A stretch of DNA of 64,000 bases from a bacterium. Lineage in GTDB: Bacteria; Patescibacteriota; CPR2; UBA1875; JAJYID01. The position numbers and the translations under genes were made by a program. This document shows, in pieces, positions 5,930-54,199 of this stretch (positions within the stretch are counted from its first letter, which is position 1; each line of letters opens with the position of its first letter). The notes under the pieces were generated by a model. The model ran no database searches and was not told the origin of the DNA. It was given only the letters and a program-made list of their open reading frames with translations. Location: contig JAJYLR010000001.1 in NCBI GenBank assembly GCA_021787535.1, positions 301,501 through 365,500 on the forward strand. The letters run 5' to 3'.

Positions 5930-5943
5930 CAAAGGAGATCAAA

Positions 5944-6126
5944 ATGGCAAAAGCGAAATGTCCGATACCGAAGACAGACAAGAAGGAACTTAAGGCATTC
6001 CGATTTGAAGGGCTGGACGGCGCTTGTCTGGCCGCGGGATGCGGCCGGAATTATCTCTATAGAGAGGGGAGATCTTTTCCGGGCGGTTGTCTGTTGAAAC
6101 AAAAATGGCAGTTTACACCAGTTTAA
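5944..6126 (+). CDS. small Cys-rich protein (60 aa)
   Basis: RBS aaggag; CPIP...C..AGCG...GGC cysteine pattern. Confidence 0.4.
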   Translation: MAKAKCPIPKTDKKELKAFRFEGLDGACLAAGCGRNYLYREGRSFPGGCLLKQKWQFTPV

Positions 6127-6147
6127 CCTAAGAGAAAGGAATTTCCG

Positions 6148-6321
6148 ATGTGCAGAAACTGTTTAGAGCCATTAGGCCAATGCGAAAAAAGCGGTTCCAA
6201 AGAGACGGTTTCAAAGTCTTCGGCTGCAATCGGCGCTCTCGTTATCTTCGCCATATTTGCGGCTTTCTGTCTTGTTGCAATTTACGCTGACCTTGGAGTT
6301 TTCTGGGGGCCGTCGAGGTAA
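6148..6321 (+). CDS. small protein (57 aa) with N-terminal CxxC...C and a C-terminal TM helix; absent from the ORF track
   Basis: RBS aaagga; MCRNCLEPLGQCEK then AIGALVIFAIFAAFCLVAIY. Confidence 0.35.
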   Translation: MCRNCLEPLGQCEKSGSKETVSKSSAAIGALVIFAIFAAFCLVAIYADLGVFWGPSR

Positions 6322-6358
6322 GAAACGTTCTATAATCTAAGTTAATTGAGGTGTTGCC

Positions 6359-6905: not shown

Positions 6906-6929
6906 GATTCTGGACAAGCCAGAATGACG
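6906..6929 (+). repeat. palindromic hairpin repeat (ATTCTGG/CCAGAAT variant)
   Basis: gattctggacaagccagaatgacg; identical core at 19969 and 43751. Confidence 0.5.
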
Positions 6930-9547: not shown

Positions 9548-9610
9548 AGGTACCCACCTCCCAAATTGAAGTCTTCCAAGTCTATTATAAATTTAGAAAT
9601 TTGTAAAGAT

Positions 9611-9651
9611 TTTTATAAAAGCGAAACCCCGGCGCGATGTTGCCGCCGGGG
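9611..9651 (-). terminator. rho-independent terminator (minus strand)
   Basis: ccccggcg...cgccgggg stem with a U-run on the minus strand. Confidence 0.6.
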
Positions 9652-9667
9652 CATCTGGTTATATAGT

Positions 9668-9964
9668 CTAGAAAAGATGAAGTTGGCTACCTTGGAAGAC
9701 TTGAGTCGGTTTCCTCATCTGCTGGACAACCTGGCCAAACCTCTTTAAGGTATTCCATACCACACTTTCCCGCAACCGTTCGATTGCATCTATGTCATGG
9801 CCGAAAGATAATTGTTTGGCGATTATGTGACAGATATACCTTTGTTTTTGCTCATCGCCATCGCGAGCCATTGCGACATATGCAGGAACGGCTTTGAAGC
9901 TAACCTCCTTCCGGTAACCGGAGGCGTAAGTTGTTACTTGGTAAAACTTTTGATTTTTTGCCAA
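9668..9964 (-). CDS. hypothetical protein (~98 aa), probable TTG start
   Basis: RBS ggaggtga 5 nt upstream of TTG; terminator downstream. Confidence 0.4.
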   Translation of the reverse strand: MAKNQKFYQVTTYASGYRKEVSFKAVPAYVAMARDGDEQKQRYICHIIAKQLSFGHDIDAIERLRESVVWNTLKRFGQVVQQMRKPTQVFQGSQLHLF

Positions 9965-10074
9965 GATACTCACCTCCACAGAAGGTAGACAGGTACAAAT
10001 TTGCTTTGATAATATCACGAAAGTGATAAATTGTCAATATTTTTCTTATATCAGATTAGAGATATAATTCTTTT

Positions 10075-16398: not shown

Positions 16399-16983
16399 TT
16401 ACCAGAGGATGCCTTGTACCGAGTACCAGGGTCTCCATCCGCGCGTTTTGTAGTATTGGTTATAAGCCAAGTCTACGTTAAACGCAGGATCGAAGATTTT
16501 CGGGCCGTAGGTTTCCAGACCGTGGTGGATCTGAAACAAGCCATAGTCATCGGTTTTGGAAACGGCATTCGGATTACCATGTGATTCTCGCGAGAGAACC
16601 AGCATTGCCTGGTCTACCGGCCAAGGATATTTGGCAACCAGCGGTCTCCACTGCTCAACGTTGTATGAAACGGCTTGGGCAGTTATCTGACCGGCAGCAG
16701 CGGCAGAAGCTTTAGCTTTCTGAGCCGCATCAAGCTCTGCCTGCTTTTTCCTCTCTTCCTCTTGCTGTTTCTGGACCGCAATCTCTTTGAGCATTAGCGT
16801 AGTCTCAGTATTTGCAAGAGTGTCATTTGATTGTTTAGGTTCCGGCGATTCTATAACCGCCTGAATGTTCTGAACTGTTTCTTTTTCTGTTTTAGGAGCG
16901 TTTACAGGTTGAGCTATGACCTGAGTTGCTGTTGTTGCTACTATCGACACTCCTGCGATAATAGCGCTCAATCTGTTAAGCAT
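16399..16983 (-). CDS. secreted lysozyme-like / lytic transglycosylase (SLT) domain protein
   Basis: Signal peptide; ES...DYGLFQI catalytic-region motif. Confidence 0.6.
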   Translation of the reverse strand: MLNRLSAIIAGVSIVATTATQVIAQPVNAPKTEKETVQNIQAVIESPEPKQSNDTLANTETTLMLKEIAVQKQQEEERKKQAELDAAQKAKASAAAAGQITAQAVSYNVEQWRPLVAKYPWPVDQAMLVLSRESHGNPNAVSKTDDYGLFQIHHGLETYGPKIFDPAFNVDLAYNQYYKTRGWRPWYSVQGILW

Positions 16984-17224
16984 TTGGTATTTCTACCTAC
17001 CTTTCTACCCTCACTCCTTTCCTGTGTTATCTTTAATAAAAGTTCCCGATTTCTCAGGAACGCGGGTAATTATAGCACAAGCACATTTGCTTGTCAATAC
17101 TTTTTTTAAGAAAATCTAGAATTTATCAAGGACCGCCAGTTAGAATTAGCTTGTCTGGTATTTTGGCCTCAGTTTAGAATCTATGATAAATAGCTGTTAT
17201 TTTTCTACTTTTTTAGAAAAAGTA

Positions 17225-17400
17225 GAGTAAAAATCGCGGCTTAGGCGGTCTCTCAAAGTATCGGATTACGGATCGTTTACCTTTGAAAAACCACGACTCC
17301 TTCCAGTCGGCCTAAAGGCAAGTGGTCTTTTCAAAGAGTTCTCTCGCCTAATCCTCTCTTTTCGATCCGATAGCCGCACATGGAGACTTAGTGATGTTGG
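17225..17400 (+). ncRNA. candidate structured RNA or 5' leader upstream of the HIT gene
   Basis: Nested complementary segments: ctttgaaaaacc/ggtcttttcaaag, cgact/agtcg, gcct/aggc, tatcggat...atccgata. Confidence 0.3.
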
Positions 17401-19929: not shown

Positions 19930-19996
19930 TGTCATCCGCGGACTTGATCCGGGGATCTAGATAAGGAAGGATTCTGGACAAGCCAGAATGACGAAA
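19930..19996 (+). repeat. composite palindromic element (tgtcatcc...ggattctggacaagccagaatgacgaaa)
   Basis: TGTCAT left end and GAATGACGAAA right end; contains the ATTCTGG/CCAGAAT hairpin. Confidence 0.5.
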
Positions 19997-20001
19997 TAAT
20001 T

Positions 20002-29245: not shown

Positions 29246-31534
29246 ATGAGCCAGACAAAAACAAAACCGAAGCTTTCCAGCGCATCGCAAGAAGTCTTAA
29301 AAAGGCGTTATCTTCTGCGTGATGACAATGGCAAAGTCATAGAAAAACCGGAGGAGCTTTTTGAGCGGGTAGCCCGCCATGTGGCAGGAGCGGAAAAAGA
29401 TTATCCCGAAGGGCCCGGTTTTAGAAAAGCGGCAGCCAAGTTTTACGACATGATGGTAAATTTCGATTTTCTGCCAAACTCTCCCACTCTTATGAACTCA
29501 GGGCGTGAGCTTGGACAGCTAAGCGCGTGCTTTGTTTTGCCTATCAAAGACTCTATGGGAGGAATTTTTGAGACAATTAAAAATACGGCTTTAATCCATC
29601 AGAGCGGAGGCGGGACCGGTTTTTCCTTTGCCAATCTTCGTGAGAGCGGGTCAAGAGTGAAGTCAACGAGCGGCGTAGCATCAGGGCCGATTACCTTTAT
29701 GACGGCCTTTAATGCCGCCACAGAAACAGTCAAACAAGGCGGCACCAGACGCGGCGCGAATATGGGAATGCTTCGTGTGGATCACCCTGATATTTTAGAC
29801 TTTATTACCTGCAAGGAAGACGATGGGGCTATGAATAACTTCAATATTTCCGTATCTCTTACAAGAAAGTTTATGAACGCTTTAGAAAAGGACAAAGATT
29901 ATGACCTTCGCTCTCCCTTAGACGGTAAAAAGAAAGGATCGCTCAACTCACGGGAAATCTTTGATCTTATAGTCAAGCAGGCGTGGAAGAACGGCGAGCC
30001 GGGCATAGTATTTATCGATCGCATGAATAGGGATAATCCAACTCCTAAAGCCGGCGAAATAGAAAGCACTAATCCTTGCGGAGAACAGCCGCTCCTTCCT
30101 TATGAATCATGCAATCTTGGTTCCATCAATTTATCTAATTTTGTTGAAGATGGTGAGATCGATTGGGAGCGGCTAAAAGATATTATACGCTCGGCAGTTC
30201 GTTTTCTGGATGACGTCATTGATGTCAATAAATATCCTTTGAAGGAAATTGCCGATACGACCAGGGCAAACCGGAAAATAGGCCTTGGAGTTATGGGGTT
30301 CGCTGATATGTTAGTTCAGCTTGGTATATCATATAACTCAGATGAAGCTGTCGAGGCAGCCGAGCAAGTGATGCAGTTTATCCAGACGGAGGGCAGGGCA
30401 ATGTCGGAGGAACTAGCTAAAGAAAGAGGTGTATTTCCAAATTGGAAAGATAGTATTTATAAAGAAGAGGGCCAAAGGGTCAGGAATGCTACTGTTACCA
30501 CGATCGCTCCGACCGGTTCAATTAGTATGATTGCAGACGCTTCGAGCGGAGTGGAACCGCTTTTTGCTGTCAGTTTTATAAAAAACGTTATGGATAAAGA
30601 CGAACTTGTTATGACTAATCCGATATTCTTGCAGATTGCCAAAAAAGAAGGATTCTACTCGGAAGAGCTGATGAAAAAAATTGCTCAAAAAGGCACTCTT
30701 CATGGCGTTAAAGAAATACCAGAAGAAATTAGGAGAGTATTTGTAGTCGCTCATGATGTATCTCCAATCTGGCACATTAAAATTCAAGCGGCTTTTCAGA
30801 AATACACTGATAATGCCGTCTCTAAAACTGTTAATTTTCCCCACTCTGCAACTCAGAAAGACGTCGCTGAGGTCTATGAGCTGGCTTATAAACTCGGCTG
30901 CAAAGGCGTCACTATTTATCGCGACGGAAGCCGCGAAGAGCAAGTCTTAAATATTGGCAAGGTGAATAAAAAAGGTGAACAAGATGCGGCAAACCCAAAT
31001 AAAAGGATGGTGCGCCAACGGGCTAAAGTAACATACGGCAGAACCATTCAGATTATGACCGGCTGCGGCAAGCTCTTTGTGACTATTAACGAGGATGCAA
31101 GCGGCAGGCCATTTGAACTTTTCTCTGTAATGGGCAAAGCCGGCGGATGCGCCGCCTCCCAAGCTGAAGCCATTTCTCGAATGGCTTCAATATCTCTTCG
31201 GAGCGGCATAGATCCCAAGATAATCATAAAACATCTCAGAAATATCACTTGTCATAGGCCCTTTGGCTTTGGTCCTGAGAGAGTGAGTTCATGCTCAGAT
31301 GCTATTGCTCAGGCCCTTGAATCTTTTATTTCTCCCCCGACTCTAGGAATAGTAAAGGATGAGAAAAAGCCGGCCGCTGAAGTGGTAGAAATCGAGATTC
31401 AACCAGAAATACCGTTTGAAGCCACAATAAAAGAAAGCTATATAGGCGGCATATGCCGGGAATGCGGCGGACCGATAGAATACGAAGGCGGTTGTATGGT
31501 TTGCAGAAGCTGCGGTTATTCAGAGTGCGGGTAG
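29246..31534 (+). CDS. nrdJ: adenosylcobalamin-dependent ribonucleotide reductase (class II)
   Basis: Class II RNR active-site region (NPCGEQPL), C-terminal Zn ribbon; 762 aa. Confidence 0.9.
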   Translation: MSQTKTKPKLSSASQEVLKRRYLLRDDNGKVIEKPEELFERVARHVAGAEKDYPEGPGFRKAAAKFYDMMVNFDFLPNSPTLMNSGRELGQLSACFVLPIKDSMGGIFETIKNTALIHQSGGGTGFSFANLRESGSRVKSTSGVASGPITFMTAFNAATETVKQGGTRRGANMGMLRVDHPDILDFITCKEDDGAMNNFNISVSLTRKFMNALEKDKDYDLRSPLDGKKKGSLNSREIFDLIVKQAWKNGEPGIVFIDRMNRDNPTPKAGEIESTNPCGEQPLLPYESCNLGSINLSNFVEDGEIDWERLKDIIRSAVRFLDDVIDVNKYPLKEIADTTRANRKIGLGVMGFADMLVQLGISYNSDEAVEAAEQVMQFIQTEGRAMSEELAKERGVFPNWKDSIYKEEGQRVRNATVTTIAPTGSISMIADASSGVEPLFAVSFIKNVMDKDELVMTNPIFLQIAKKEGFYSEELMKKIAQKGTLHGVKEIPEEIRRVFVVAHDVSPIWHIKIQAAFQKYTDNAVSKTVNFPHSATQKDVAEVYELAYKLGCKGVTIYRDGSREEQVLNIGKVNKKGEQDAANPNKRMVRQRAKVTYGRTIQIMTGCGKLFVTINEDASGRPFELFSVMGKAGGCAASQAEAISRMASISLRSGIDPKIIIKHLRNITCHRPFGFGPERVSSCSDAIAQALESFISPPTLGIVKDEKKPAAEVVEIEIQPEIPFEATIKESYIGGICRECGGPIEYEGGCMVCRSCGYSECG

Positions 31535-31617
31535 GGGGAAATGTTGAAATTGTAAAAGATGTTGGAGATGCTGAGAATGAAAAAACAGGCAATTTCCTCA
31601 AGTGAAGCGATCCAACA

Positions 31618-32133
31618 ATGAGAACGGATTATAGGATGATTCAAATTTATACAGGAGATGGCAAAGGGAAAACTACCGCCGCGGTTGGTTTGGCGGTCAG
31701 AGCGTCGGCTCACTGCAAAGTTTTATTCGCGCAATTCATAAAAAATGGCGATTCGAGCGAGGTAGAGATATTAAAGACCATACCCAATATTGACTATAGA
31801 GCTTTCGGACAAGGCAATTGGATATTAAAGGATGAGGAAAAAACAAAGGAAAGGAAAAATGTCAGCCGCGGATTTGAGTATCTAAGGGCAAATTGTAAAA
31901 AATATAAAGTGATTATCATGGATGAAGCGGTTACCGCGGTAAGTCTGGGAATTATTAATGACAATAAACTGATAAACTTAGCCAAAGAAATCGGAAAAGA
32001 CAGAGAAGTTATTATGACAGGCAGAGGAGCAACGGAAAGTATGATTGAAAAAGCGGATTTGGTGACTGAAATGAAAAAGGTAAAACATTATTATGATAAA
32101 GGCGCGAACGCCAGAAAGGGAATAGAATTATGA
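31618..32133 (+). CDS. cob(I)alamin adenosyltransferase (CobO/BtuR family)
   Basis: IYTGDGKGKTTAAVG P-loop typical of CobA/CobO; 171 aa. Confidence 0.8.
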   Translation: MRTDYRMIQIYTGDGKGKTTAAVGLAVRASAHCKVLFAQFIKNGDSSEVEILKTIPNIDYRAFGQGNWILKDEEKTKERKNVSRGFEYLRANCKKYKVIIMDEAVTAVSLGIINDNKLINLAKEIGKDREVIMTGRGATESMIEKADLVTEMKKVKHYYDKGANARKGIEL

Positions 32134-32771
32134 AAGAAGTTTGGGGGAGGGTGCGAATAGGATGGGTTTATCTTCTGGGGATAGTTTTAATGGTCGGTTT
32201 TAGTTTATTGATTGCTCACTCGAATAGTACCGCCAAAAGCGAGCCGGAAAATCCGCCGGTAAAAGCAGTTCAAAAAGACAAGGATTTGAATGCCAGCCAA
32301 CCAGAACAAAAGACAACAGCGAATCAGAGAGGCAGCAGCAAATCCGCCGCAAAGAGTACCGAAAATATCATCCCGGCAGTCAAAAGTTCCTCGAGGACAG
32401 CTCAGGTTAATAATTCTTCGGCTGGCGCGGTTATGGCGCCCGCACAAAGCGCTCCTACACAGCCGGTACAAACAAACCCTGCCGAAACAGTTGAAATGCA
32501 GATATCCGGTTTAGGCAGCTTCACAGTACCGATCACAGACGGTGAAAACGCATTTGATGCTTTAAAGGAGGCGGCAAACGAAAACGGTTTTAGAATCGAG
32601 TACAAAACTTATTCATGGGGGGTGATGATTACAAAAATCGGAGGTACTGAGATGCAAGGTACTTACTACTGGGCTCTCTACTATAACGGGAATTACTCAG
32701 ATGTAGGTGCCAGCGATCTCACAGTAAAAAATAATGATGTAATAAAATGGAGTTATGAATCATGGATGTAA
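32130..32771 (+). CDS. membrane-anchored DUF4430 (transcobalamin-like) domain protein, putative B12-binding
   Basis: N-terminal TM, Ser/Ala-rich linker, C-terminal pattern ...DALK..A...G...EY....G..I..IGG......YW.LY.NG...DVGAS...VK..DVIKW.Y. Confidence 0.6.
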   Translation: MKEVWGRVRIGWVYLLGIVLMVGFSLLIAHSNSTAKSEPENPPVKAVQKDKDLNASQPEQKTTANQRGSSKSAAKSTENIIPAVKSSSRTAQVNNSSAGAVMAPAQSAPTQPVQTNPAETVEMQISGLGSFTVPITDGENAFDALKEAANENGFRIEYKTYSWGVMITKIGGTEMQGTYYWALYYNGNYSDVGASDLTVKNNDVIKWSYESWM

Positions 32772-33325
32772 AAATACAAAAAATCTTAAAAATAGCGGAT
32801 GAAAATCTGATCGCGATACTGATTGTAGTATTGGCAATCTCAACTCGGCTTTTGCCTCACCCGGATAACTTTACCGCAGTTGGCGCATCAGCTCTTTTTG
32901 CCGGGGTATATCTAAAGAAAAAATACGCTTTGTGGCTCCCCTTAGCTATTATGGTTATATCTGACATGATTATTGGGCTTCACAATCTTATCTTCTTTAC
33001 TTGGGGCAGCTTCATGCTCATGGGAATAATTGGACTTTGGATTAGAAAGAGAAAGAACATACCAAATGTCATCTTTGGAACAGTGACCGGGTCACTCAGT
33101 TTCTTCTTTATCACAAACTTTGCCGTCTGGGCTTTTACTCCTATGTATGCCAAGACTGCGCAGGGATTGGTACAATGCTATCTAATGGGACTGCCTTTCT
33201 TTAGAAATACTATTGCCGGTGATCTTTTCTACGTTGGCGTTATCTTCGGTGCATATGAAGCGGTGAGATATTTGCTGCCCAAATTGAGAACAAATAGGAT
33301 ATTAGCCGAAAATATAAACAAATAA
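32762..33325 (+). CDS. small polytopic membrane protein, putative ECF-type S component (CbrT-like) for cobalamin
   Basis: Six predicted TM helices in 187 aa; genomic coupling to the DUF4430, cobO and nrdJ genes. Confidence 0.4.
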   Translation: MDVKIQKILKIADENLIAILIVVLAISTRLLPHPDNFTAVGASALFAGVYLKKKYALWLPLAIMVISDMIIGLHNLIFFTWGSFMLMGIIGLWIRKRKNIPNVIFGTVTGSLSFFFITNFAVWAFTPMYAKTAQGLVQCYLMGLPFFRNTIAGDLFYVGVIFGAYEAVRYLLPKLRTNRILAENINK

Positions 33326-33437
33326 TTTATTCATTTTCAACCTCTGATTTTATGTCAGAGGTTTGTGTACATGATAAAAAAACTCTGGTCAAATCTTTCT
33401 AGATATGGTATGATATCTCAGGTTAAAAAAGAGGGCA

Positions 33438-34259
33438 ATGGAAGACACACAGAATCAAATTGAAATATTCTTAAAATCAATACCTTGGATTAAGAATTTT
33501 AAAGATAAAGTTTTCGTTCTGAAATATGGCGGAGAGCTTTTAACGTCTGAAAGCAACATTAGGAAGATATCGGCTGATATTGATCTTCTGGCTACCCTTG
33601 GTATTCGATCTGTAGTCGTGCATGGCGGCGGACCTCAACTAGATAAAGCGCTAAAAGAAAAAAATATCAGCTTCGAAAAGAAAGACGGCATGCGGGTTTA
33701 TTCCAAAGAGATTTTGGATGTCTCCCAAAAGGTTTTTGGAGAAGTAGCAAGTGAGCTCAGGAAAAATATTGAGAGAAGGGGCATTAAAACCAAACTTCTG
33801 CCCAATGAGTATGTTAAAACGGAAAGAATTCAAAATCTGGGATACGTAGGCAAAGTGACTTCTATTAACTCCCTTTTCTCCAAAATGATCAATGGCATAG
33901 TTGTGCCTATTATGCCGCTTTTCGGCTGGGACGAGGGAGGCGAGCTGTGTAATGTCAATGCGGATGATATGGCCGTATCTGTGGCTGAGATGCTTGGGGC
34001 CGAGAAACTGATCATCCATACGTCGGTTGACGGAGTTTTAAATAAAGATGACCAAATTATTACTCATTTAAATCTCGAGAAAGCTGAACGTATGATTAAA
34101 AGGGGTTATATTCAGGGCGGGATGATACCGAAAGTTCTGCATTGTCTTCAATCTGAAAAAGTGGGCAAAATCCATATTATTAACGGCAATATCCCTCATG
34201 CGCTTCTATACGAGGTTTTTACCGAGCAAGGTATCGGTACTGAGATAGTCAGAGATTAG
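33438..34259 (+). CDS. argB: amino-acid kinase family, acetylglutamate kinase-like
   Basis: VLKYGG, VHGGGPQ, NVNAD motifs. Confidence 0.75.
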   Translation: MEDTQNQIEIFLKSIPWIKNFKDKVFVLKYGGELLTSESNIRKISADIDLLATLGIRSVVVHGGGPQLDKALKEKNISFEKKDGMRVYSKEILDVSQKVFGEVASELRKNIERRGIKTKLLPNEYVKTERIQNLGYVGKVTSINSLFSKMINGIVVPIMPLFGWDEGGELCNVNADDMAVSVAEMLGAEKLIIHTSVDGVLNKDDQIITHLNLEKAERMIKRGYIQGGMIPKVLHCLQSEKVGKIHIINGNIPHALLYEVFTEQGIGTEIVRD

Positions 34260-34302
34260 TTTTATTAGACTAAATTAAATATCTAAATAGAACAAAAAAT
34301 CT

Positions 34303-34331
34303 TTGACAGAAACCAAAATTTTTATTATAAT
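34303..34331 (+). promoter_or_regulatory. consensus sigma70 promoter (TTGACA-17-TATAAT)
   Basis: TTGACA 34303-34308, 17-nt spacer, TATAAT 34326-34331. Confidence 0.45.
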
Positions 34332-34429
34332 ATTTTAGCACTTAAAAAGCAGTTTGTGCGGCTATAATAGAGTTTTTTTGAATTCTGTTATAGCTGCACA
34401 AGCAAAAAAATCCTCTAATTTGTTCATTT

Positions 34430-35000
34430 TTCTCAAGGATGATCGCGAGAACATTGAACTCACAGAGGAACAATCCACTTCGTCGCCGATATGGGCCGGA
34501 TAGCAGTTGCCTACCTACCTATCCTGGTATCGTTGCAACGTATTCGGAGTTCGGTGAACAATGGAAGATGCAGGCTTCCAAGGAGGTGGTTATCTGGTGC
34601 CTACCAGATAAAGACCTGTAGGAAAGATAAGATGATAGGTTCGGGTGGCTTGTCTTTCTGCCGGCGGAATAAAACGGTGAAGATCATAAGAGGAGAGAGC
34701 AGCCCCGACTGTGGATCTCCGGCTAGGCGCTACTCTAGTCAAGCACTTTTTTAATGGATACATTTCCTTGGATAGGAGGTCAGACGAGAGTTAGTAGATC
34801 CTGATTCGGCTTGACCGATCACTCTTGTCTGCATGTATCTACGACAAAGGAAGATTTTTAACCACAGCTTCGCTCATTTGAGTAAAGTAAGAAGAGTCCT
34901 TAAGCTCCCTTCTGAACCCAAATGAGAACGTAGTGGTACCGTCTGCAGACGGATGAACGTTGCTTTTCCGTTGTCAGGAACGGACAAGTTCAACGCTTTT
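34430..35000 (+). ncRNA. candidate large structured ncRNA (~570 nt), identity unresolved
   Basis: Non-coding, GC markedly above the genome average, many local hairpins (atctggt/accagat, cctac/gtagg, ccgtctgcagacgg); promoter upstream and terminator at the 3' end. Confidence 0.35.
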
Positions 35001-35015
35001 AAAGCTCGGCCAAGC
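34981..35015 (+). terminator. rho-independent terminator
   Basis: aaagctcggc/gccgagcttt plus T-rich tail. Confidence 0.65.
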
Positions 35016-35120
35016 CGAGCTTTTCTCTTTTATTTAAATGATGATTGAGTTTGTAATATTACATATTAATTTCTAGCCCCTTTCATTGTAATCTTTATTT
35101 AATTATAAAAGGAGGTTGAA

Positions 35121-35501
35121 ATGTTAAGCGATAAGAAAGCTGTGGCGGTCTTGCCGGCCACAGATTTAAAAAGAGCGAAGGATTTTTATACCGAAAAACT
35201 TGGGCTTAAAATTTTAAATGAGCCGCCGGGCATGCTTGCAGTTGGCGCAGGTGAAGATACGATGTTTACGGTTTATGAGAGGCCCGAGGGCACAAAAGCG
35301 GATCACACCGTCCTTGATTTTAGCGTTGGCGATATTGAAAAAGAGGTAGCCGATCTCAAAGCCAGGGGTGTGATTTTTGAAGAATATGATATGCCGGAAA
35401 TGGGCATCAAAACTGAAAACGGCATTGCTATCATTGGGGACTGGAAATCGGCTTGGTTTAAAGATTCTGAAGGCAATATTATCGGTTTAGATCAGATGTA
35501 A
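35121..35501 (+). CDS. VOC (glyoxalase/bleomycin-resistance) family protein
   Basis: Beta-alpha-beta-beta-beta module repeats; 126 aa. Confidence 0.8.
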   Translation: MLSDKKAVAVLPATDLKRAKDFYTEKLGLKILNEPPGMLAVGAGEDTMFTVYERPEGTKADHTVLDFSVGDIEKEVADLKARGVIFEEYDMPEMGIKTENGIAIIGDWKSAWFKDSEGNIIGLDQM

Positions 35502-43288: not shown

Positions 43289-43379
43289 TTTCCCTATAGC
43301 ATAAAAGCATTGACAAAAACAGGATATTATGTTACCCTCTATTTCGTAAAAGTTCCTCTAGAGTCGATAAGGAGATCTA

Positions 43380-43562
43380 GTGAATACTGTACTGAATATG
43401 GTCTTTCTCATCCTGTTCTTTGTTGCAATCGTGGGGTTGTCCTTTCTAGTGAACAGCCTGATCAACTGGATCTGGCCCTACAACTGGCTGATCGCACGGC
43501 CGAAGGTGCCCAAGAATCAGTTACAGCTTTTTGGCACCTGGCAGTATCGCGGGCGCAGATAA
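43380..43562 (+). CDS. small membrane protein (60 aa), GTG start
   Basis: RBS aaggag 6 nt upstream; one TM helix. Confidence 0.4.
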   Translation: MNTVLNMVFLILFFVAIVGLSFLVNSLINWIWPYNWLIARPKVPKNQLQLFGTWQYRGRR

Positions 43563-43695
43563 AGTAGCAGCTGTAAACCAGGAATGTATCACCGGTCAGG
43601 CGGGCGTTTCCGCCCGCCTGACCAAAACCCAAGCAGAGTAATTCGAATTCAAAGATTATAGTCAAAGAAAAGCTCTGCTTTTTCATTTGATTTTA

Positions 43696-43724
43696 TTGAC
43701 TATCTCGAGAAAATTTAGTATAAT
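43696..43724 (+). promoter_or_regulatory. sigma70 promoter TTGACT-17-TATAAT upstream of rplU
   Basis: Near-consensus boxes. Confidence 0.45.
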
Positions 43725-43750
43725 TTTTTAGTGTTTAAAGATATTAATCT

Positions 43751-43779
43751 GGATTCTGGGCAAGCCAGAATGACGAAAG
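43751..43779 (+). repeat. palindromic hairpin repeat immediately upstream of rplU
   Basis: ggattctgggcaagccagaatgacgaaag. Confidence 0.5.
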
Positions 43780-43782
43780 AAA

Positions 43783-44354: not shown

Positions 44355-45245
44355 ATGGGGATAGAAATGCCGGACAAAATGGAAGTGCCCTCGAGCGACC
44401 CGACAAGCGCTCGGGCAATGTTTAACCTAGGGCGGCAGCAGCAAGAAAAACTGGAGCAAACTAGGACAAGAGATTATTCAGCTGAAGAGATTAGCCAAAT
44501 TAAGCAATTTCTTGCGGATCATGAAGAACTGACAGATAAGCTAGTCGGTTTTTATGGCGATAAAACCATGAAACTAGCTCTTGACTGTCCAACAATGGGC
44601 AACCGAGAATATAGCGATTATGTCAAAGATCAGGAAGCAAAAAATGATCCCCAAGTTTCTAAATTTTCAGAAAGTTACCGAAGAGGACTCATTCTTTTAG
44701 CTGATTCTCCCGAGACCAAAATTCTAGGCGAAGATATTTCTCTTCTTATGGCCTCAAAATATGATCGCTATAAAAACGGGACAGATCTTGTAGGTGTAGC
44801 TAGACAGCAAGATGTGGCGACAGGGAGATCCGAGGAAATAAACTTTGGGCTTAACACTACGCGAGAGCTTTATAAACTATCCGCAAACAATGATGACAGA
44901 GTTGAATATTTGCCATCATTTGTTTTGGCTGCCAGAAGAAAGCCGCATTCTTCAGGTATTGCCACAAACGCCGTTGTAGATTTGCCTCTTCGCCTTGAGG
45001 CCGATGTAATTCTTTTGGCCTCGGAATTAATTGAAGGAAAGGATATAGCAGAAACTGATAAATTTGCCGAATTGCAAAGGGAGCTTAAAGGAAGATTTAT
45101 GGCAAATCTCGAGCGAACCATGGAACGCCTTGATGGGGCGCTGGAAGATCGGGGAGTGGGAGAGACGGTTCACTCATTTTATCAAGCAAAAAAAGAAGCC
45201 ATCACGAAAATAGAGTCGGCGATTGAACCGGTAAGGCTTTCATAA
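44355..45245 (+). CDS. hypothetical protein (296 aa)
   Basis: RBS aaaggag; no motif that I recognise. Confidence 0.5.
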   Translation: MGIEMPDKMEVPSSDPTSARAMFNLGRQQQEKLEQTRTRDYSAEEISQIKQFLADHEELTDKLVGFYGDKTMKLALDCPTMGNREYSDYVKDQEAKNDPQVSKFSESYRRGLILLADSPETKILGEDISLLMASKYDRYKNGTDLVGVARQQDVATGRSEEINFGLNTTRELYKLSANNDDRVEYLPSFVLAARRKPHSSGIATNAVVDLPLRLEADVILLASELIEGKDIAETDKFAELQRELKGRFMANLERTMERLDGALEDRGVGETVHSFYQAKKEAITKIESAIEPVRLS

Positions 45246-45306
45246 ATTCCATTTCAAAATCCGGCAGTTGCCAGATAGGAGGTTTTCAACTTCACAGTAA
45301 AAACTC

Positions 45307-45335
45307 TTGACTAACATAATAATTTTTGTTATAAT
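45307..45335 (+). promoter_or_regulatory. sigma70 promoter TTGACT-17-TATAAT
   Basis: Near-consensus boxes at the start of the GC-richer island. Confidence 0.45.
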
Positions 45336-45359
45336 ATTAATCATTAGGATTAACTTTTT

Positions 45360-45600
45360 GTACATCTAGCTGATGTGCGAGAGTGATCCTAATGTTCTTA
45401 AAAAATGCGACTGGCGTTGAAAGGAGGATACGATCTTCATGAAGCGACTTTGCTCCTGACACTTTGACATGCGGAAATTAATCGGCGTTGTGTCAGGAGG
45501 ATAATTGCCCTTATTAAGGACACGAAGGAGAGATCATGAAGCGAAGTATCTAGGGTGCATCCTTTTTTTTCTGGGATGTGCCCGAAAAAACTTTTTTTAG
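45360..45600 (+). promoter_or_regulatory. leader region with two tiny ORFs (MKRLCS*, MKRSI*), each behind a strong RBS, plus an attenuator-like hairpin
   Basis: aaggaggatacgatcttcATG...TGA at 45439-45459 and gaaggagagatcATG...TAG at 45536-45553; ctcctgacac pairs with gtgtcaggag; gggtgcatcc-T8-ctgggatgtgccc hairpin. Confidence 0.4.
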
Positions 45601-45936
45601 CGCTTTTTATAGCCGCTTAGACGGCTAGCCGCAAGAGGCGGAATCGTGGCAATTTTATCACGCCTCTTCGACAAACCTATGGAGGAGAGGAACCCTCCCG
45701 AACCATTGGGAGGGTTCCCCCTCAAAAGTTTGTGAGAGATTGAGGAAATAGTTTTTATTTCCTCAGGCCTTCGCCACAAGGCATCAGGGAGCATATCGCA
45801 TGCTCCCTTTCTTATTGATAAAATCCTTGCTATTTTTTATGTTTTGTTATATAATTACCACCACGAAATCAAGGTAACCTCTGGGCTTACCTATTTTGTA
45901 CCTATTCATTCAATTACCTTGAAGGAGGTGAGATCT

Positions 45937-53596: not shown

Positions 53597-54199
53597 CTAG
53601 TATTTTGGTTCAGAGATAAGTCCTAATTCATTTAAAGGAAGAACGCGGAGCCATGCTTTGCCGATAATATGGTCTCTCGGCAGAGCGCCCCATTCACGAG
53701 AATCCAAACTGGCATTTGGCTGTCTGTTGTCTCCAAGTGTGAAATACTCATCTTTCCCGAGAGTTTTTGTTTCGTCTCCCTGCAGTTTAAAGCTGGCTGT
53801 ATTTGGAATATAAGATTCATTCAAGACGAACCCATCCGGATGCTGTTTGTTTTTGATAGTGACAGTTCCGTTTTTGATAATCACTGTTTCTCCGGGAAGC
53901 CCGATAATCCTTTTAATGAAGTTGGTACAGGGACTAAACGGCGAGAAGCGGTTGAAATAGTTTGCACTGAGAAAATCATTGCACCCCTTCTCTGGGTGTT
54001 TAAAGACAACCACATCGCCTCGTTGCGGAGAACCTATGAGGTATGGAAGCTCTTCCACAAATATATAGTTCTTGTTCTGGAAATTAGGTTCCATTGAAGT
54101 GCCTAAAACAAGGAAGGGTTCCAGAAATAAATATTTTACTGCCAAAACAACGGCAAGTATTATAATAATACTTTTAGTTTTAGTAAAAATTGTTTGCAC
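53597..54199 (-). CDS. lepB: signal peptidase I
   Basis: GTSMEP (Ser), KRIIGLPGE (Lys), GDNR...S.DSR boxes. Confidence 0.9.
   Translation of the reverse strand: MQTIFTKTKSIIIILAVVLAVKYLFLEPFLVLGTSMEPNFQNKNYIFVEELPYLIGSPQRGDVVVFKHPEKGCNDFLSANYFNRFSPFSPCTNFIKRIIGLPGETVIIKNGTVTIKNKQHPDGFVLNESYIPNTASFKLQGDETKTLGKDEYFTLGDNRQPNASLDSREWGALPRDHIIGKAWLRVLPLNELGLISEPKY

Follow-up and report, generated by a model that had tools for sequence, protein, structure and literature searches.

A predicted self-contained, non-coding transcription unit of about 690 nt between argB and a VOC gene in a candidate-division-WS5-like genome

In this study, we analysed the spacer between argB and a VOC/glyoxalase gene in the metagenome-assembled genome of a candidate-division-WS5-like bacterium (candidate phyla radiation). 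The DNA available was a stretch of 64 kb, which is called the window throughout, and this spacer is the longest intergenic region in it. An earlier note made from the sequence had placed a candidate large RNA between these two genes, and the assignment of the flanking genes to PF00696 and PF00903 bears this location out. The region is chromosomal with conserved synteny, and not a prophage; the order around argB (class II ribonucleotide reductase, CobO, DUF4430, DUF6580, argB, small genes, YggT, IleRS) is kept in relatives. The argB protein itself is confined to its own contig and one Logan contig from the same sample (SRR13170411), and the nearest argB relatives, at most 77% identical, come from MAGs labelled Patescibacteria group or candidate division WS5. 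In the window (29246-34259) and in the related loci L003 and L012, a lone argB lies in conserved synteny behind a B12-related cluster consisting of a class II ribonucleotide reductase with a TSCPD domain, a CobO adenosyltransferase, DUF4430 and DUF6580, while in other relatives argB lies behind NrdD/NrdG rather than this cluster. No further arginine-biosynthesis genes were found near argB. The features of the locus are as follows.

33438-34259: argB (PF00696, AA_kinase), 5' neighbour of the unit
34262-35048, no strand assigned: insertion of ~790 bp into the ancestral argB-VOC spacer, from alignment to the L003 spacer
34303-34331, + strand: sigma-70-type promoter TTGACA-17-TATAAT, 12/12 match, with an A-rich tract immediately 5'
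34352-34403, + strand: H1, a 24-bp 5' hairpin with zero mismatches (G.U wobbles included), unique in the window
34404-34995, + strand: non-coding body of about 540-590 nt, 47% GC, a string of ordinary local hairpins
34590-34611, + strand: 9-bp perfect hairpin with a GCCU loop, -10.4 kcal/mol, z = -3.9
34755-34841, + strand: long irregular branched hairpin with 11-bp and 8-bp helices, one G.U in each, -30.0 kcal/mol, z = -2.1
34873-34926, + strand: 54-nt hairpin closed by the 8-bp helix CUCAUUUG/CAAAUGAG, -16.3 kcal/mol, z = -4.0
34939-34984, + strand: two short hairpins, CCGUC-UGCA-GACGG and UCCGUU-GUCAGG-AACGGA, neither with a T-run after it
35001-35031, + strand: intrinsic terminator, 10-bp stem with 6 G-C pairs and a 3-nt loop, followed by TTTTCTCTTTT
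35121-35501: VOC/glyoxalase gene, 126 aa (PF00903), 3' neighbour of the unit

The perfect TTGACA-17-TATAAT that had been claimed at 34303 is present, matching the consensus at all 12 positions. The 64 kb window contains just one more site of this kind, which makes two where shuffled sequence would give 0.07, and this second site (17069-17097, - strand) lies upstream of a gene for a 194-aa SLT-domain (lytic transglycosylase-like) protein at 16399-16983; because of this excess, and of the place of the second site before a gene, the consensus looks functional in this organism. Three promoter regions of the window (34293-34335 and 45299-45338 on the + strand, 54155-54196 on the - strand) are ~78% identical over ~42 nt and have in common an A-tract just 5' of the -35 box, which suggests that a UP-like element may belong to a common strong-promoter architecture of this organism. 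From the promoter spacing (~7 nt past the -10 box), transcription of the unit is predicted to start at ~34337-34339. At the other end, the terminator stem-loop occupies 35001-35023 with a T-run that extends to ~35031; its hairpin folds with -15.5 kcal/mol (z = -4.7) and is the only terminator-like site between 33800 and 35600. A clean terminator does exist, as the earlier note had stated, but not at 34981: the hairpin read there (34967-34984, UCCGUU-GUCAGG-AACGGA) has no T-run, and the end coordinate of 35015 given for the element falls inside the true terminator stem. The element is thus bracketed by a promoter and a terminator on the same strand, as judged from sequence signals, and the predicted RNA runs from ~34338 to 35031. 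The unit probably makes this RNA of ~690 nt, and we regard it, on the strength of these signals, as a self-contained, non-coding transcription unit of the + strand.

H1 starts ~14 nt into the predicted transcript. On the + strand it folds with -33.8 kcal/mol (z = -11.1), and on the - strand with -17.2 kcal/mol only, owing to internal mismatches (four C.A/A.C). The differences between its arms are transitions only, and each of them leaves a G.U pair on the + strand; we estimate the chance of such an all-G.U pattern, with transition bias allowed for, at roughly 0.01. The pattern points to selection on an RNA and not on a DNA palindrome, and H1 is the sole feature of the unit that would speak for selection at the RNA level. 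Its asymmetry and the orientation shared by promoter and terminator fix the + strand as the strand of the unit. A 5' hairpin combined with a 3' terminator hairpin is a classic guard against decay from the 5' and 3' ends, and a duplex of 24 bp suffices in length as an RNase III site.

The body between H1 and the terminator is less distinctive than had been supposed. Its GC content had been described as far above that of an AT-rich genome; the core, at 47.5%, is indeed richer than the ordinary short spacers of the window (27-37%), but the window itself has 43.0% and the whole intergenic region 40.1%, so that 'far above' was an overstatement. Both the GC content of the core and its G>C skew resemble coding sequence of the + strand. 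The whole unit folds with z = -7.5, most of which comes from H1 and the terminator, and the body, taken in 200-nt windows, gives z from 0 to -0.6. Compared with shuffles, the 551-nt core (34410-34960) has z = -2.4 on the + strand and -2.6 on the - strand, i.e. no strand asymmetry, a value spanned by the range of six coding controls (-0.3 to -4.2), and it ranks at the 12th percentile of folding among 312 native tiles of the window after correction for composition. All three hairpins that the earlier note had named exist (34590-34611, the one written there as atctggt-gcct-accagat, 34939-34952 and 34352-34403); the dense packing with helices that it had seen does not appear to exceed chance, and the body seems no more helical than ordinary sequence of this genome. 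The branched hairpin at 34755-34841 is weak evidence because its z on the - strand is equally -2.1, and the hairpin at 34873-34926 has z = -3.5 on the - strand. None of the stable hairpins of the unit carries a GNRA or UNCG tetraloop. GGA/AGGA motifs occur 17 times in the body against 12.9 expected, a marginal excess (p = 0.04-0.07); they include three Shine-Dalgarno-like AGGAG sites, and their placement in hairpin loops is not systematic. No CsrA gene is present in the 64 kb window. That the RNA titrates a protein or the ribosome by way of its GGA and Shine-Dalgarno-like motifs may be considered as a weak lead.

The claim that the interval holds no credible ORF was tested in several ways and stands. 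The longest ORF in the unit has 87 aa and is not preceded by a ribosome-binding site (Shine-Dalgarno). With a codon-usage score for which 29 long genes of the window served as the training set, the log-odds are at most 0.05 bits per codon in all six frames, against 0.26 +/- 0.11 in real genes. Period-3 spectral power, which is independent of host codon usage, is 0.55 in the core as compared with ~5 in genes of equal length, and is at the level of shuffles in local windows of the core. The stop codons TAA, TAG and TGA are mixed in every frame, and a recoded genetic code (codes 4 and 25, TAG as sense) was for this reason rejected. Ten stop-free segments gave no match in Pfam at E <= 10, and neither did the six concatenated frames against 5.8 billion proteins at the same threshold. 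A HMMER search with the longest stop-free frame against 1.84 billion cluster representatives returned one marginal match (E = 3.6e-4) to a repetitive 1869-aa protein in 8 stretches, which we judged to be a compositional artefact and not a coding relation. The proteins of the neighbouring genes gave no support for a pseudogene when compared with the region by tblastn, and reconstruction of an ORF would require the reversal of at least 3 frameshifts and 2 nonsense codons. A protein-coding gene or pseudogene is rejected on the absence of an ORF, codon bias, 3-base periodicity and protein homology, and a conserved coding frame, which the earlier note had named as one finding that would overturn its reading, was sought by codon usage, period-3, stop types and homology and was not found.

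A scan of the entire 64 kb window with Rfam 15 gave zero matches at the gathering score, and there is likewise no tRNA or tmRNA anywhere in positions 1-64000. When the region alone was searched with permissive filters at E <= 10, only chance-level matches were obtained (miRNA models on H1, sRNA terminators), and the models of OLE, ROOL, GOLLD, HEARO, raiA, RNase P, tmRNA, 6S, SRP and introns were all absent. It had been suggested that the element might be OLE/ROOL/GOLLD/HEARO-like, and the scan with these families, RNase P, tmRNA and 6S that had been proposed as a check gave no credible match, so that this suggestion is not upheld. Of the reading as a large ornate RNA, the data support no more than a non-coding transcription unit. 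OLE RNA (RF01071) has no covariance-model match at either threshold. OLE is expected beside oapA/ole-associated protein genes in an anaerobic Firmicutes host; the neighbours here are instead argB and VOC in a WS5-like genome of the candidate phyla radiation. ROOL (RF03087) and GOLLD (RF01998), which are often found in the neighbourhood of prophages or tRNAs, have no model match, and there is no phage similarity and no tRNA in the 64 kb. HEARO/omega RNA (RF02033) has no model match, and the flanking genes are argB and VOC with no IscB/TnpB. More generally, no IscB, TnpB, reverse transcriptase or OLE-associated gene neighbours the unit. Bacterial RNase P RNA (RF00010/RF00011) is not matched even at E <= 10; short look-alikes of its CR-I/CR-II (AGAGGAACAAUCCAC, GGUGAAGAUCAUAAGAGG) were read by eye in the unit and have no P4 partner. 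6S RNA (RF00013) forms a hairpin of ~180 nt that opens at its centre into a bubble resembling an open promoter; its model gives no match, and H1 is fully paired with no bubble. No catalytic-core model of group I or group II introns matches. Since tRNA genes of Patescibacteria (candidate phyla radiation) can conceal group I introns (PMC13011429), an intron-bearing tRNA was searched for as well, and ARAGORN, with default and relaxed scores and with introns of up to 800 nt, detected no tRNA or tmRNA in the region. tmRNA (RF00023), tRNA and intron-bearing tRNA are rejected on the negative ARAGORN and Rfam results.

Comparison with related loci gives an indication of how the unit came to lie at this position. 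In the nearest relative, L003 (argB 77% identical), the entire 70-nt argB-VOC spacer aligns with window positions 35049-35120, and the sequence from the argB stop to ~35048 has no counterpart there; the unit is therefore best described as an insertion of ~790 bp with its own promoter and terminator. The insertion boundaries showed neither terminal repeats, inverted or direct, nor a target-site duplication, and there was no second copy elsewhere in the window. Synteny in related genomes had been proposed as a test of the element, and the unit is absent from every relative that covers the slot, six out of six (L003, L004, L005, L009/L010, L011 and L013; argB 68-77% identical); the L012 contig ends 74 nt after argB and was excluded from this scoring. 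Taking in partly related loci, eleven were inspected and all are without the unit. With nhmmer, no homologue was obtained either in related loci totalling 112 kb or elsewhere in the window, and blastn against phage and plasmid collections gave no match. The large collections were scanned through stop-free translations, with six near-exact 24-nt windows per scan (12 patterns in two scans of JGI metagenomes, 24 in four scans of IMG/VR), and nothing was confirmed; scans of this kind detect relatives only above roughly 85% identity over 24 nt. Within the relatives and collections searched, the unit is found in one uncultivated bacterium only.

The slot itself is variable. Unrelated non-coding insertions are present in the same argB-VOC slot in L004 and L005, including a repeat that is also found at window positions 17198-17378; the slot is therefore a dumping ground for DNA, and the position after argB in this clade is a hot spot for non-coding insertions. 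Gene content just 3' of argB varies among L003-L013 in the manner of a small flexible islet: VOC follows argB only in the window, L003 and L005, and in L011, L009 and L013 the slot holds unrelated, uncharacterised ORFs of 94-261 aa or 100 aa. The repeat, a non-coding sequence of ~200 nt (17198-17378 in the window, 4938-5159 in L005, 4895-5125 and 6925-7104 in L004), carries …CTACTTTTTTAGAAAAAGTAG…CGCGGCTTAGGCGG…GATAGCCGCA…, has no Rfam match and keeps 84% identity between genomes that share just 68-71% in the argB protein; it would be a MITE-like mobile element or else an ncRNA conserved in the clade. A shorter sequence of 24-31 nt recurs with 93-100% identity at three intergenic sites of the window (43751-43781, 19969-19999 and 6906-6929) and in the argB-VOC spacer of L005 (4918-4944), and may be a small repeat or a binding site.

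The reading that we favour, tentatively and with somewhat less than even confidence, is that the unit is a lineage-specific, young, stand-alone ncRNA gene which arrived as the insertion of ~790 bp. This is consistent with a promoter that matches at 12 of 12 positions and with the orientation of the sole terminator of the interval on the + strand, with the difference in H1 stability between the strands (-33.8 kcal/mol on + and -17.2 on -, all non-Watson-Crick pairs being G.U on +), with the lack of coding capacity in four independent tests (codon usage, period-3, stops and homology) and with the discreteness of an insertion that has its own start and stop signals. In addition, a core of coding-like GC content (47.5%) in an AT-drifting genome with spacers of 27-37%, together with an intact promoter, H1 and terminator, argues against old, decaying junk. 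However, the unit is missing in six syntenic relatives and has no homologue in metagenomes, viral contigs, phages or plasmids, the body folds no better than typical genome sequence and does so without strand asymmetry, and the slot is prone to unrelated repeat insertions (L004, L005). As we picture such a gene, the sigma-70 consensus promoter would initiate RNA near 34338, the 24-bp hairpin H1 would be the first structure formed, the next ~590 nt would be free of coding sequence and form ordinary local hairpins, and the intrinsic terminator would stop the RNA near 35031, giving ~690 nt. The RNA would presumably be made and be stable, either with H1 and the terminator hairpin as protection or with H1 as a substrate for RNase III processing, and it would act as RNA, most likely in trans. 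There may also be an effect on the neighbours. In L003 argB lies only 70 nt upstream of VOC; in the window no terminator belonging to argB precedes 35001, so that the insertion would terminate argB read-through ahead of VOC, and its terminator may now uncouple VOC from this read-through.

The main rival is neutral, recently acquired DNA, a 'moron'-like cassette or a piece of phage, plasmid or mobile-element DNA in a variable slot, with a payload that was never coding or has lost all trace of a gene and that is perhaps transcribed into a functionless RNA. We consider this a serious alternative, if a doubtful one. The restriction to a single genome, the clean 70-nt spacer in the nearest relative and the variability of the slot, which is filled by different small genes in L009, L011 and L013 but by repeat elements in L004 and L005, would all be expected of it, as would the succession of a promoter, ~600 nt and a terminator, which is the architecture of a one-gene cassette; a GC content and G>C skew like those of + strand coding sequence and a body that is not unusually structured fit equally well. 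However, there is no period-3 signal even locally, no frame has a convincing codon score, and the 5.8 billion proteins searched contain no homologue for any frame. To restore an ORF one would have to undo at least 3 frameshifts and 2 nonsense codons, and a decay of that length fits poorly with the flawless state of the promoter, H1 and the terminator. Nor are there terminal repeats or a target-site duplication, and the phage, plasmid and viral collections contain no matches. A stronger claim than that of a young RNA gene would be that the unit founds a new class of functional ncRNA of ~0.7 kb in the WS5-like lineage and is its sole member to date. Expressed from the consensus promoter, such an RNA would be protected or processed by means of the 24-bp 5' duplex and would work in trans, for instance as a sponge for a protein or the ribosome. 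We think this unlikely; relatives below ~85% identity could have been missed because the pattern searches needed near-exact 24-nt matches.

Three further explanations were weighed. It is improbable, in our view, that the unit is a cis-regulatory leader of ~780 nt for VOC, with the promoter at 34303 driving VOC and the terminator at 35001 acting as a conditional attenuator. The unit does lie directly 5' of VOC in the same orientation, there is no convincing separate VOC promoter in 35032-35120, and 13 nt at 34806-34818 are 92% complementary to the terminator core and could in principle compete with it, although this complementarity is likely to be trivial because both sequences are near-palindromes. 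What disfavours a leader is that the VOC orthologues in L003 and L005 lack it; no riboswitch, T-box or leader family matches, so that the assignment by Rfam to an ordinary VOC leader, which had been named as a possible refutation of the RNA gene, did not occur, and we know of no precedent for a 690-nt leader of a 126-aa enzyme. Membership as a divergent form in a known class (OLE, ROOL, GOLLD, HEARO/omega, raiA, RNase P, tmRNA, 6S, introns or an intron-containing tRNA) is effectively refuted, and we would give it hardly any weight: the size and stand-alone layout would suit a large or housekeeping RNA, the short look-alikes AGAGGAACAAUCCAC and GGUGAAGAUCAUAAGAGG recall RNase P CR-I/CR-II and group I introns can hide in Patescibacteria tRNA genes (PMC13011429), but Rfam 15 gave zero matches at the gathering score and none of these families at E <= 10, ARAGORN was negative even when scores were relaxed and introns of up to 800 nt allowed, and no IscB, TnpB, reverse transcriptase or OLE-associated gene is a neighbour. 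Just as little weight is given to a functional RNA on the - strand with H1 as its terminator. On that strand H1 is followed by CUGCUUUUU and the core folds no worse (z = -2.6) than on the + strand; however, a good promoter is absent from the - strand, where H1 also has four C.A/A.C mismatches and only half its stability, and both the perfect promoter and the real terminator point in the + direction. This explanation is rejected on the asymmetry of H1 and the direction of the signals.

A second non-coding region headed by a promoter (TTGACT-17-TATAAT at 45308-45336) lies at 45245-45844 (+ strand) and is the most over-folded stretch of the window for its composition (residual of about -48 kcal/mol, on both strands). 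It contains two tiny Shine-Dalgarno-preceded ORFs (MKRLCS* and MKRSI*) and several G+C-rich hairpins, lies upstream of a gene for a 766-aa ResIII-helicase/HNH-repeat protein and has nothing credible in Rfam. This region looks a better candidate for a structured RNA than the unit between argB and VOC. Further long and relatively GC-rich intergenic regions lie at 5930-6358 (47% GC), 9548-10074 and 43289-43782.

To our knowledge, the RNA biology of the candidate phyla radiation is almost unexplored. If the unit is functional, it would be among very few candidate large regulatory RNAs in these genome-reduced bacteria, and it would be an example of a young RNA gene that arrived as a complete cassette from promoter to terminator. 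In its present state it is a single-genome orphan with no unusual structure, and its practical value is that of a pointer to the argB slot.

Several known systems share features with the unit. Like the CsrB/RsmZ sponges, it is several hundred nucleotides long, with a strong promoter, a chain of hairpins and 17 GGA motifs; however, GGA is no more than marginally in excess (p = 0.04-0.07), the motifs do not regularly fall in loops, the window has no CsrA gene and there is no Rfam match to CsrB/Rsm. Phage 'morons' and other single-gene accessory cassettes are also discrete insertions with their own sigma-70 promoter and intrinsic terminator, and as in their case the unit lies between genes that are adjacent in the nearest relative and differs in composition from the surrounding spacer; unlike them, it has a payload without an ORF or the trace of one, and the region is chromosomal and syntenic. 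Large ornate ncRNAs have been discovered by way of long intergenic regions that are rich in GC although the genome is AT-rich (PMC8632094, PMC11109978). The unit differs from them in having no covariance-model match, no conservation and no excess folding energy in the body, and in lacking GNRA/UNCG-capped helices, the usual partner genes and a prophage or tRNA context, although it is, like OLE, ROOL, GOLLD, HEARO and raiA, long (~690 nt) and non-coding, with its own promoter and terminator and a core that is richer in GC than the spacers. At the 5' end, the comparison is with the ompA and ermC leaders and the stems of rRNA precursors, which are stabilising 5' stem-loops or RNase III processing stems; hairpins of the ompA and ermC type block 5'-end-dependent decay. 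H1 resembles these, by functional analogy only, as a 24-bp duplex near the predicted 5' end.
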